A stretch of DNA of 60,308 bases, taken from the IMG/VR virus record IMGVR_UViG_2923339551_000004, one strand, 5' to 3'. The notes under the pieces were generated by a model, which was given only the letters and a program-made list of their open reading frames with translations, was not told the origin of the DNA and searched no databases. The number at the start of each line of letters is the position of its first letter. Position 1 is the first letter of the stretch. The stretch comes from a virus (Duplodnaviria; Heunggongvirae; Uroviricota; Caudoviricetes). Below, one piece after another: positions 49,892 through 52,294 of the stretch. A program made the position numbers and the translations under genes.

Positions 49892-50215
49892 ATGGATGCA
49901 CAAACACGCCGCCGCGAACGTCGCGCAGAGAAACAGGCTCAATGGAAAGCAGCAAATCCCCTGTTGGTTGGGGTAAGCGCAAAACCAGTTAACCGCCCTA
50001 TTCTCTCGCTGAATCGCAAACCGAAATCACGAGTAGAAAGCGCACTGAATCCGATAGACCTTACGGTGCTGGCTGAATACCACGAACAGATTGAAAGCAA
50101 CCTGCAACGTATTGAGCGCAAGAATCAGCGCACATGGTACAGCAAGCCTGGCGAACGCGGCATAACATGCAGAGGACGCCAGAAAATTAAAGGTAAATCT
50201 ATATCACTTATTTAG
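49892..50215 (+). CDS. N: antiterminator N
   Basis: [28 protein letters not shown]...; start at MDAQT within the longer track ORF. Confidence 0.95.
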
Positions 50216-50702
50216 AAAATGCAGATTTAGGGAACAGATAGGAGGCGTTACACCTATGGCATCTCATCCTATGGTTAGAAGGTGGTGCAAATCCTTCGTA
50301 TTGAAGTATGGATTTCACAGAAGATTCATAGCATTGAGCGCAAAGATAGTGCATTGGCTGACCGGTATTTGCCGATTTTTTGAGACGATAAACCACCGTA
50401 GCAACAGTAGGTGTATACATCTCATAGTTTTTCTTTTCCTCTTCCCACTTAGAGGCTCGATTTATCTTTTCTTCAAGCTCAATAATCTTGTCCTTAGAAA
50501 TCATCAAAAGCTCATTAAGTGACATTTGCTGCTGTTGGGCATCCATGAGCTTATCGACAAGTTCGTATGTTTTTTCTTTTACTGAGTAGTCTATTTGCAT
50601 TTTCTGGATTTCCTTTACTGCGCCAACAGCACTCATCAGAGCACCTCCGGCACCAGAAACTGCATCTGTAATCCTACTTATTATTCCTTTTTCATCAGAC
50701 AT
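50208..50702 (-). CDS. hypothetical protein: coiled-coil N-terminus and C-terminal Cys4 zinc-ribbon-like motif
   Basis: 164 aa from ATG 50702 with RBS aagagag; CAQCY...CHRC; AT-rich; opposite strand to the pL operon, in the interval where lambda carries ral and sieB. Confidence 0.5.
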
Positions 50703-50930
50703 ATAAATCACTCTCTTACTGTAGGGGTAAGAGGATTTTACTATTTTTCTCGCTGTAGGGGTACACGAGAACCACCGAGCCTGATGTGGTTAAAAGACAG
50801 GCATACTAATAAACACTGCACTGTGTATTTATTCCAACGAGTGAATACACGGAGCAATGTCGCTCGTAACTAAACAGGAGCCGACTTGTTCTGATTATTG
50901 GAAATCTTCTTTGCCCTCCTGGATTTGCCC

Positions 50931-51836
50931 CTATATTTCCAGACATCTGTTATCACTTAACCCATTACAAGCCCGCTGCCGCAGATATTCCCGTGGCGAG
51001 CGATAACCCAGCGCACTATGCGGATGCCATTCGTTATAATGCTCGAACGCCTCTGCAAGGTTCTTTGCTGCCGTTAACCCGTCTGGTTTGGGCATGATAC
51101 TGATGTAGTCACGCTTTATCGTTTTCACGAAGCTCTCTGCGATTCCGTTACTCTCCGGACTCCGCACCGCCGTGTTCTTCGGTTCAAGTCCCAACATCCG
51201 GGCGAACTGGCGTGTTTCATTAGCCCGGTAGCATGAACCATTATCCGTCAGCCACTCCACTGGAGACGACGGAAGATCGTTGCCGAAGCGGCGTTCCACC
51301 GCTCCCAGCATGACGTCCTGTACTGTTTCACTGTTGAAGCCGCCGGTAGTGACCGCCCAGTGCAGTGCCTCACGATCACAGCAGTCCAGCGCGAACGTGA
51401 CACGCAGTCTCTCTCCGTTATCACAGCAGAACTCGAACCCGTCAGAGCACCATCGCTGATTGCTTTCTTTCACGGCCACTCTGCCTGTATGTGCCCGTTT
51501 CGATGGCGGTACAGCAGGTTTTCGCTCAAGCAACAGCGCATTCTGGCGCATGATCCGGTAAACACGTTTGGCATTGATCGCAGGCATACCATCAAGTTCT
51601 GCCTGTCTGCGAAGCAGCGCCCATACCCGACGATAACCATACGTGGGCAGCTCTCCGATAACATGGTGTATACGGAGAAGCACATCCGTATCATCAGTGT
51701 GACGACTGCGGCGGCCATCCATCCAGTCATCGGTTCGTCTGAGAATGACGTGCAACTGCGCACGCGACACCCGGAGACAACGGCTGACTAAGCTTACTCC
51801 CCATCCCCGGGCAATAAGGGCGCGTGCGCTATCCAC
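50931..51836 (-). CDS. insD: IS2 transposase InsD (OrfB)
   Basis: 301 aa, DDE transposase. Confidence 0.9.
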
Positions 51837-52159
51837 TTTTTTGCCCGTCCATATTCAACGGCTTCTTTGAGGAGTTCATTTTCCATCGTTTTCTTGCCGA
51901 GCAGGCGCTGGAGTTCTTTAATCTGCTTCATGGCGGCAGCAAGTTCAGAGGCAGGAACAACCTGTTCTCCGGCGGCGACAGCAGTAAGACTTCCTTCCTG
52001 GTATTGCTTACGCCAGAGAAATAACTGGCTGGCTGCTACACCATGTTGCCGGGCAACGAGGGAGACCGTCATCCCCGGTTCAAAGCTCTGCTGAACAATT
52101 GCGATCTTTTCCTGTGTGGTACGCCGTCTGCGTTTCTCCGGTCCTAAGACATCAATCAT
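51794..52159 (-). CDS. insC: IS2 InsC (OrfA)
   Basis: [47 protein letters not shown]... Confidence 0.9.
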
Positions 52160-52294
52160 CTGCTCTCCAATGACTAGTCTAAAAACTAGTATTAAGACTA
52201 TCACTTAAATAAGTGATACTGGTTGTCTGGAGATTCAGGGGGCCAGTCTACCTCCAGTGTGAGGGCGATTTTTTATCTATGAGGATATGAATAG

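Follow-up and report, generated by a model that had tools for sequence, protein, structure and literature searches.

The interval between the antiterminator gene N and ea10 in a lambda-type prophage very probably holds two separate, previously described things: rip1 (ring interacting pore 1), which occupies the slot that belongs to sieB in lambda, and a recent, nearly neutral insertion of IS2. Both parts of the interval are real, and both are already known. The window analyzed here is the whole stretch of 60,308 nucleotides of IMG/VR record IMGVR_UViG_2923339551_000004.

An AT-rich 164-amino-acid ORF had been predicted on the strand opposite N, and it was found, to the base, at positions 50208 to 50702 of the minus strand (ATG at 50702, stop at 50208). 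An alternative upstream GTG start at 50711 would give a product of 167 amino acids. The GC content of the gene is 39.6%, versus 49.5% for the window as a whole, and the gene is convergent with N, overlapping the N stop by 8 bp. A phmmer search of PDB matched the product to chain L of entry 9OOX, the Rip1 protein of phage HK446, at 163 of 164 residues (99.4% identity; E = 1.4e-105), the sole difference being Y97 here and H97 in HK446. Since the two proteins are identical but for this residue, the ORF is, as judged by its sequence, rip1, an already described single-gene, prophage-encoded antiphage defense. The corresponding HK446 gene (gp37) has the same place, adjoining N. The product also matched PHROG 1244 (E = 4e-53), a family without an assigned function. 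No family model in Pfam, NCBIfam, or PADLOC (2023) matched above threshold; the sub-threshold matches to PDE12-like_N, Zn_ribbon_4, and PDC-M53B were noise and were discarded. The ORF had been proposed as a moron of unknown function. It is indeed a self-contained accessory gene of the moron type, but the homology and structure searches give it a known function.

The predicted structure of the product agrees with this identification. In an AlphaFold (AF2) model, long helices at residues 7 to 34 and 39 to 90 precede a small beta domain at residues 93 to 158, in keeping with the coiled-coil N terminus that had been expected. The pLDDT of the N-terminal part is low (42 to 58), so the helix geometry in the model is unreliable; the hydrophobic moment is highest at residues 7 to 24 (muH, 0.42). 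Foldseek aligned the model with 9oox_M from a PDB library over 126 residues (E = 2.6e-17; TM score, 0.90; root mean square deviation, 2.0 Å), the same arrangement of an N-terminal long-helical part and a C-terminal domain. The CxxC...CxxC C terminus of the original prediction corresponds to the pairs C121-x2-C124 and C148-x2-C151, which were invariant in 23 enterobacterial homologues. In the present comparison this double pair is a family feature, and it was also seen in JBD30_030 and in HkaP of HK620/HK630; the four cysteines, together with ILQ and YRxK, are kept from E. coli Rip1 to these proteins.

The mechanism and structure of Rip1 were published in 2026 (Patel et al., Nature 651:1060), and the account given here draws on a review (PMC13434031), a meeting report, and the title of the PDB entry. 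HK446 Rip1 was solved by cryo-electron microscopy bound to the small terminase of T6 (PDB 9OOX). According to the review, a lysogen produces Rip1, which is harmless by itself, and a superinfecting phage in late development supplies ring-shaped oligomers, namely, the small terminase in E. coli phages and the portal in Pseudomonas phages. About 12 copies of Rip1 are described as docking around the ring via their C-terminal half, while the N-terminal amphipathic helices form a membrane pore, so that the cell is permeabilized before progeny mature and the infection is aborted. Rip1 is also mentioned in PMC12908700 and in the Avs2/Upx paper. In our AF2 model, the ring-docking half would correspond to the four-cysteine domain. 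Given 99.4% identity to HK446 Rip1, the present copy would be expected to assemble in the same way as a ring of about 12 molecules, to form a pore, and to protect its lysogen from phage.

The copy in HK446 is thus the closest described relative in residues, in predicted fold (a pair of long helices at the N terminus, followed by a C-terminal domain with four cysteines), and in its opposite-strand position beside N. It differs in its setting: HK446 has an HK97-like backbone, whereas the present gene lies in a lambda-immunity, lambda-Int prophage at att-lambda, with IS2 upstream. Homologues in phages and prophages of Serratia, Providencia, E. coli, Rhodobacter, and Pseudomonas are all single genes, as is rip1 within this lambda-type prophage. 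The homologues in Mu-like Pseudomonas phages (D3112 orf25, JBD30_030, DMS3, and MP38) belong to the same family at about 30% identity (E of about 1e-17 for the D3112/DMS3/JBD30 type) and are likewise set antisense within a lytic operon. They adjoin the large terminase gene, in agreement with the review (PMC13434031), whereas the present gene lies in the early-left operon, and the same review, as far as it describes the Pseudomonas system, has it triggered by the portal and not by the small terminase.

Among 5,426 complete E. coli genomes, 95 carry rip1 (about 1.8%), and recognition of the gene implies that this fraction carries the Rip1 defense. The finding is of practical use for annotation: RefSeq entries for E. 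coli genomes continue to label the gene "hypothetical protein," and the RefSeq entry for phage ev099 has, in its place, an 88-amino-acid ORF called on the wrong strand.

Alignment with lambda confirmed that the gene content of the interval differs, as had been predicted: sieB, orf28, and ral lie between N and ea10 in lambda, and all three are missing here. The original prediction had further set the opposite orientation of the ORF against the lambda arrangement, a contrast that does not hold. Lambda sieB (34482 to 35036) itself lies opposite N (35037 to 35438) and abuts the N stop codon, so the opposite strand is normal for this slot. Lying between N and ea10 and transcribed against pL, rip1 is a like-for-like replacement in the lambda sieB slot, antisense to the pL transcript. 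Its slot and orientation, and a stretch of about 57 nucleotides upstream that is common to the ORF and lambda sieB, might also be read as signs of a divergent SieB-type superinfection exclusion protein and not Rip1. We rejected this identity as exceedingly improbable: the best BLASTP match to lambda SieB had an E value of 9.4, which is no match; searches of Pfam, PHROGs, and NCBIfam returned no SieB family for the product; and the product is almost identical to a solved Rip1. SieB of lambda and P22 and Rip1 are thus different protein families that share a slot, an orientation convergent with N, and a position antisense to pL transcripts, and both are prophage-expressed proteins that abort a superinfecting phage. 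Recognition of rip1 here marks the lambda sieB slot as an exchangeable defense locus.

The second part of the interval is a complete IS2 on the minus strand (50920 to 52250; 1,331 bp, with imperfect terminal inverted repeats), flanked, as predicted, by CCTCC at 50915 to 50919 and at 52251 to 52255. Both of its ORFs are full length on the minus strand: insC (OrfA; 51794 to 52159; 121 amino acids) matched NCBIfam PRK09413, "IS2 repressor TnpA," over 121/121 positions (E = 2.9e-83), and insD (OrfB; 50931 to 51836; 301 amino acids) matched PRK09409, "IS2 transposase TnpB," over 301/301 positions (E = 1.3e-219). An A6G motif for −1 frameshifting (AAAAAAG) is present at 51842, at the insC/insD overlap. 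The element is 99.5% identical to the annotated IS2 of Shigella phage SfX and is the only IS2 copy in the window. Length and repeats, the two ORFs with their A6G site, and the 5-bp duplication all mark it as IS2.

IS2 makes a target duplication of 5 bp. The repeat alone proves little, as the window has 86 copies of CCTCC when both strands are counted (61 and 25), and the flanks might therefore be coincidental, with IS2 having arrived by recombination and not by transposition. The empty site decides against this reading, which has next to no probability and was rejected. Phage ev099 (NC_049953) has a single CCTCC, not two, and is 100% identical over 1,565 bp to window positions 49800 to 52700 minus IS2 and one CCTCC, so that both flanks are otherwise the same. 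IS2 thus arrived by genuine transposition and duplicated 5 bp of its target, as had been claimed. The junction of the insertion was found in 1 of the 5,426 genomes in which rip1 was found 95 times, which indicates that the insertion is recent and strain specific, and positions 52251 to 58978 are 99.985% identical to ev099, which indicates that the downstream genes have not decayed since. IS2 is an ordinary element here, and its insertion is a one-off event without general significance.

To judge what the insertion may do to the pL operon, the elements around it have to be considered. The pL promoter (49635 to 49663, plus strand; TTGACA-17-AATACT; 10/12 matches in a promoter scan) lies inside lambda-type OL operators, in a region that matches the lambda sequence at nearly every base. 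The nutL site follows on the same strand at 49703 to 49733; in alignment with lambda (J02459), boxA (TGCTCTTAA, 49703 to 49711) has one change, the first base from C to T, and boxB (GCCCTGAAGAAGGGC, 49719 to 49733) is identical. N itself (49892 to 50215, plus strand; 107 amino acids, open from 49814; Pfam N36, E = 1.5e-26) is nearly identical to lambda N and 100% identical to that of ev099. A terminator scan of the plus strand found a terminator-like hairpin of 9 pairs with a T-rich tail at 50712 to 50734, just past the antisense rip1 stretch. Two CTGTAGGGGTA motifs, one within this hairpin (50719 to 50729) and one beyond it (50753 to 50763), are also found upstream of sieB in lambda, and the hairpin is a candidate equivalent of tL1 on the pL transcript. 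Past IS2, the first pL-operon gene is ea10 (52295 to 52663, plus strand; Pfam DUF2528, E = 3.7e-47), followed by cIII (with its RNA thermometer, RF01804, at 52723 to 52781), kil, gam, bet, exo, xis, and int. IS2 therefore lies physically between N and these genes, and the predicted separation was borne out.

IS2 inserted into the stem, in its 5′ arm, of a hairpin that belongs to an intrinsic terminator. It lies upstream of both neighboring genes, at distances of 217 bp from the rip1 start and 44 bp from ea10. An alignment shows the intact hairpin (GCCCTC-CAGTGT-GAGGGC-GATTTTTT) in ev099, HK446, and lambda (33933 to 33950); its remnant here, with the T-run, lies together with the right CCTCC copy at 52251 to 52274 (plus strand). 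The calculated energy of the hairpin is −9.9 kcal/mol when intact and −4.8 kcal/mol after the insertion. The split hairpin may correspond to tL2a. The lambda records J02459 and NC_001416 have no annotation of tL1 or tL2.

IS2 had also been thought likely to be polar on the genes downstream, a claim that we consider weak. Without N, pL transcripts probably end before they reach IS2, since the stretch ahead of ea10 comprises 743 nucleotides of untranslated RNA (IS2 excluded) and carries the terminator-like hairpin at 50712 to 50734. With N, polymerase resists both Rho-dependent and intrinsic terminators. Since nutL and N are intact here and N-modified polymerase tolerates the IS elements in lambda r32 and r14, strong polarity on cIII to int is unlikely. 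These two lambda mutants, in which an N-dependent operon contains an IS element, still form plaques on wild-type hosts, and the insertions do no more than sensitize them to nus mutations (PMC4807359). After induction, N-modified polymerase from pL and nutL would be expected to read through the 1.3 kb of IS2, and at most the prophage may have become more dependent on N and Nus factors. The insertion leaves rip1 and roughly the first 200 bp ahead of it unchanged and would be close to neutral.

It could be argued instead that IS2 is strongly polar even with N, so that cIII, Gam, Bet, Exo, Xis, and Int are starved and the prophage is locked in place; the insertion would then be a step towards domestication, with the defense genes kept for the host. 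The Rho-dependent terminators of IS2 are strong enough to have served as a polarity reporter, N and ea10 are now separated by 2,079 untranslated nucleotides instead of 743, and in lambda, IS elements have been found to increase termination (PMC4807359). Set against these points are the growth of r32 and r14 on wild-type hosts, the intact nutL and N, the undecayed downstream genes, and the occurrence of the insertion in a single genome, which gives no sign that it has been selected. The integrase gene, moreover, has its own cII-dependent promoter in lambda and could be expressed from it. We consider strong polarity in the presence of N quite improbable and prefer the nearly neutral insertion. 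The comparison with r32 (IS2) and r14 (IS1) holds insofar as all three concern a lambda-type genome with an IS element in an early operon that is subject to antitermination by N. The r32 and r14 insertions are laboratory selected and map to the cII-O region of the pR operon, whereas the present one interrupts a terminator hairpin of the pL operon and comes from a natural isolate; at most, the allele could serve as a natural counterpart of r32 for testing N-dependent read-through of the pL operon.

A further alternative to near neutrality is that IS2 alters rip1 expression, either raising it through read-through or an outward promoter or silencing it by separating the gene from a more distant promoter or regulator. 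IS2 insertions can create hybrid promoters, and Jaurin and Normark reportedly described one at ampC in 1983. Both insC and insD read in the same direction as rip1 and against pL, and the element ends 217 bp ahead of the rip1 ATG. However, neither IS2 junction had a promoter-like site in the promoter scan, and a hairpin (50733 to 50713, minus strand) lies between IS2 and rip1. The 217-bp gap is also intact, matching the ev099 allele completely and the HK446 allele with one mismatch, and leaves room for a normal promoter. We consider an effect of IS2 on rip1 improbable. The minus-strand scan for a rip1 promoter gave a single promoter-like site (50707 to 50680), which overlaps the start codon; promoter-like sites in the scan were fewer than in shuffled sequence.

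The rip1 homologue was opposite in strand to the flanking lytic genes in every context examined, namely, lambda-type, HK97-type, HK620-type, Serratia, and Providencia contexts, a Mu-like Rhodobacter phage, and two Mu-like Pseudomonas phages. As a speculation, to which we would give a low probability, rip1 genes may be embedded antisense in lytic operons so that the prophage's own lytic transcription silences them and provides self-immunity. The silencing transcription would here be that from pL through N and, in the Pseudomonas phages, late transcription through the terminase genes; it might act by transcriptional interference or antisense RNA at the time when the prophage makes its own terminase and portal rings. 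The small terminase of the present prophage is of the Nu1 type. If so, a co-oriented IS2 could perturb this balance in the present strain.

Elsewhere in the prophage, capsid gene E is split by an 11.3-kb island (int-alpA-pri-capsid) that is co-oriented with E and has a 10-bp att identity block; its junctions with E are at 20549 to 20558 and 31864 to 31873. Since E is split, the lytic competence of the prophage depends on more than IS2. We considered the island as a novel feature and rejected this, as it is of the published helper-embedded PICI type. The described example, "11capE" (Barth et al. 2023; PMC10111431), is likewise an 11.3-kb int-alpA-pri-capsid island inside a lambda-type gene E, with the same orientation and a 10-bp att identity block; its helper is at icd, whereas the helper here is at att-lambda, and the present island, unlike 11capE, carries as cargo a GmrSD_N protein and a RiboL-PSP HEPN protein. 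Candidate defense genes are thus stacked in this prophage: rip1, an NYN-domain gene in the rexAB slot, and the GmrSD/HEPN genes on the embedded satellite.

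The early-left region of the window follows the lambda arrangement on the + strand, as judged from reading the sequence between 49000 and 53500 and listing its ORFs. cI (47712-48425, +) is immediately followed by a 285-aa NYN-domain gene in the lambda rexAB slot (48553-49410, +; Pfam NYN, E 6.8e-9), pL with the OL operators (about 49600-49665, +), nutL (49703-49733, +) and N (49892-50215, +). The 164-aa ORF lies on the - strand at 50208-50702, and a 217-bp spacer separates it from IS2 (50920-52250). ea10 (52295-52663, +) comes next, then cIII, kil, gam, bet and exo. A lambda-type Int gene (57820-58890) adjoins ybhC (59025-60308), which places the prophage at att-lambda. 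The first base of nutL boxA (49703) is T in the window (TGCTCTTAA) and C in lambda (CGCTCTTAA).

The original prediction called the 164-aa ORF a candidate accessory gene of unknown function. The first half of that description was right, while the second is superseded by structure and sequence searches. Profile searches against Pfam, NCBIfam and PADLOC (2023) gave no match above threshold, and PHROGs places the ORF in family 1244, function unknown. A large protein search returned 29 clusters from Escherichia, Citrobacter, Edwardsiella, Pantoea, Providencia, Serratia and Proteus, labeled "hypothetical protein" wherever the source supplies a name; C121, C124, C148 and C151 are invariant in their alignment. 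This alignment was the basis of an AlphaFold model (pLDDT 71.6) in which helices at 7-34 and 39-90 accompany a small beta domain. The model strongly matched a single PDB entry, 9OOX (E 2.6e-17, TM 0.90, 99% identity), [quoted passage not shown] In a PDB sequence search, 163 of 164 residues were identical to "ring interacting pore 1 (Rip1)," the sole difference being Y97, which is H in HK446. The HK446 protein, gp37, is encoded at the same place beside N. The ORF is essentially the published Rip1 protein, and we refer to it as rip1.

The Rip1 mechanism is summarized in a 2026 review (PMC13434031, citing Patel et al., Nature 651:1060-1067). As described there, Rip1 is non-toxic by itself, and 12 monomers encircle the 11-mer small-terminase ring; the C-terminal half touches the ring and the N-terminal part is an amphipathic helix. 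The complex forms a pore: liposomes leak dye, cells acquire holes, and phage maturation is aborted. Escape mutations map to the portal in Pseudomonas phages and to the small terminase in E. coli phages. Two further papers, PMC12908700 and the Avs2/Upx paper, describe Rip1 as a small-terminase sensor or a pore-based defense.

More distant relatives were found by tblastn of phage genomes, namely, the Pseudomonas D3112/DMS3/JBD30/MP38 group (about 30% identity, E ~1e-17) and HkaP of HK620/HK629/HK630 (27% identity). The four cysteines, ILQ and YRxK are kept across the E. coli ORF, the Pseudomonas group and HkaP. Annotation of rip1 lags behind the 2026 literature, and the main practical value of the identification is annotation correction. 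In RefSeq genomes of E. coli, rip1 goes under the name "hypothetical protein." The RefSeq record of ev099 (NC_049953), a phage with the IS2-free allele, misses rip1 and instead annotates an 88-aa + strand ORF inside it on the opposite strand (H3V35_gp46, 4457-4723 of the ev099 locus, equivalent to window 50256-50522).

The opposite-strand placement of rip1 had been presented as a contrast with lambda. However, lambda sieB (34482-35036) is likewise encoded opposite N (35037-35438), directly adjoining the N stop codon, so that rip1 is a like-for-like replacement in the sieB slot. Slot and orientation are alike, but BLASTP against lambda SieB showed no sequence similarity. About 57 nt upstream of rip1 are shared with the region upstream of sieB, including one of two CTGTAGGGGTA hairpin motifs, and lambda orf28 and ral are absent from the interval in an alignment of the IS2-free allele with lambda and HK446. 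In each context examined, distant Rip1 homologues (25 to 53% identity) hold equivalent positions and run antisense to the lytic genes around them: Serratia and Providencia prophages, HK630, vB_EcoM-611R5, Rhodobacter phage RcWaterboi and the Pseudomonas phages JBD30 and LPB1. The location is the early-left operon in lambdoid, Serratia and Providencia prophages, and a site adjoining the large terminase gene in the Mu-like Pseudomonas phages. Placing rip1 antisense within lytic operons might have a role in regulation or in self-immunity.

The description of IS2 in the original prediction was confirmed throughout. The element is 1331 bp long with imperfect terminal inverted repeats, InsC and InsD cover 121/121 and 301/301 positions of the NCBIfam IS2 models, an A6G frameshift motif lies within the insC/insD overlap, and identity to annotated IS2 copies is 99.5%. 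CCTCC flanks it at 50915-50919 and 52251-52255. Since CCTCC occurs 86 times in the window, both strands counted, the repeat by itself is weak evidence of a target duplication. The empty site in ev099 settles the matter in favor of the predicted transposition: it holds a single CCTCC, and removing IS2 and one CCTCC from window 49800-52700 leaves 1565 bp that all match ev099, at 100% identity. rip1 at ≥99% identity is present in 95 of 5426 complete E. coli genomes. Many of the 5426 carry the uninterrupted allele, and the rip1/IS2 junction is found in one only (strain HCM-28C-2, from chicken). Downstream of IS2, the window and ev099 are 99.985% identical over 6.7 kb. From the empty site, the single junction and this downstream identity, the insertion is a genuine, recent and strain-specific transposition. 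The junction in HCM-28C-2 (NZ_AP038246) is 100% identical to that in the window.

The IS2-free allele, lambda and HK446 share about 150 bp of conserved sequence around the target. CCTCC belongs to the 5′ arm of a hairpin, GCCCTC-CAGTGT-GAGGGC, that precedes GATTTTTT; on the pL strand, this arrangement is shaped like an intrinsic terminator. Its lambda counterpart (33933-33950) lies between ral and ea10, at what we take to be the tL2a position; the lambda records compared (J02459 and NC_001416) carry no terminator annotation. The insertion leaves the right-hand copy with a stem of just 4 bp, and the predicted hairpin energy changes from -9.9 to -4.8 kcal/mol. CTGTAGGGGTA occurs twice between rip1 and IS2 (50719-50729 and 50753-50763), each time inside a small hairpin, and likewise twice upstream of lambda sieB. 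A consensus scan marked a terminator-like hairpin at 50712-50734; this first CTGTAGGGGTA hairpin with its T-run (50712-50745) looks like a terminator of the pL transcript and is possibly a tL1 equivalent. About 70 bp from the target, an inverted repeat, GTGTATT[T/C]A ... TGAATACAC (50812-50849), is conserved in lambda, HK446, ev099 and the window; its 9-bp arms match perfectly in lambda and HK446 and have one mismatch in the window and ev099.

Throughout, we infer the consequences of IS2 for expression of rip1 and the pL operon. IS2 leaves intact both the rip1 coding sequence and the 217 bp upstream of it, and these match the IS2-free alleles of ev099 and HK446, bar one mismatch to HK446. The IS2 genes are oriented towards rip1, and read-through into it is conceivable; a promoter scan found no promoter-like site at the IS2 junctions and no rip1 promoter. 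Polarity on the pL operon had been considered probable. IS2 does contain Rho-dependent terminators, and the insertion lengthens the untranslated N-to-ea10 gap from 743 to 2079 nt. However, polymerase without N modification would probably halt before IS2, having to pass the 50712-50734 hairpin and then untranslated RNA, and it is N-modified polymerase that withstands such signals; alignment with lambda shows an identical boxB, a boxA one base off and an intact N. Moreover, lambda r32 and r14, which have an IS within an N-dependent operon, still form plaques on wild-type hosts, and their only defect is hypersensitivity to nus mutations (PMC4807359). Strong polarity is therefore quite unlikely, and the effect of IS2 is probably a mild increase in N dependence. 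The original prediction was thus partly right, in transposition and accessory gene, and partly outdated or weak, in function, strand and polarity; both IS2 and rip1 belong to known kinds.

The 285-aa NYN gene, also present in ev099, belongs to PHROG 5783 (function unknown) with weak PADLOC matches to HEC-09 and NYN, and it is a candidate prophage-expressed RNase-type defense. A second, larger interruption relative to ev099 is an 11.3-kb island (about 20559-31863) within the lambda-type major capsid gene E, in the same orientation as E and flanked by 10-bp repeats TGCTTGGGTT (20549-20558 and 31864-31873). It encodes an integrase, AlpA, a D5_N primase, SSB and its own E-like capsid and D-like decoration proteins, with a cos-like segment at 22653-22833. 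The island is of the published helper-embedded PICI type 11capE (PMC10111431). Its cargo, on the strand opposite the other satellite genes, comprises a 403-aa GmrSD_N (DUF262) protein (20665-21876, +; E 1.9e-35) and a 193-aa RiboL-PSP HEPN protein whose gene overlaps it (21848-22429, +; E 1.9e-13), likely a two-gene defense module. Because gene E is split, phage production needs precise island excision. Of the 5426 genomes, 169 carry the integrase/E junction. The published 11capE helper is at icd (PMC10111431) whereas the helper here is at att-lambda, so the same satellite type occurs in helpers with different integration sites. At the satellite/E junction (31300-32300), identity to the window drops to 99.8% in HCM-28C-2, against 100% in other strains. 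The window may derive from a near relative of HCM-28C-2 or from another assembly of this strain. Elsewhere, the short stretches 1723-2492, 11773-11959 and 38198-39667 had no megablast match in ev099, and identity in the late and tail regions is 94 to 98% where matched, which is usual lambdoid mosaicism.
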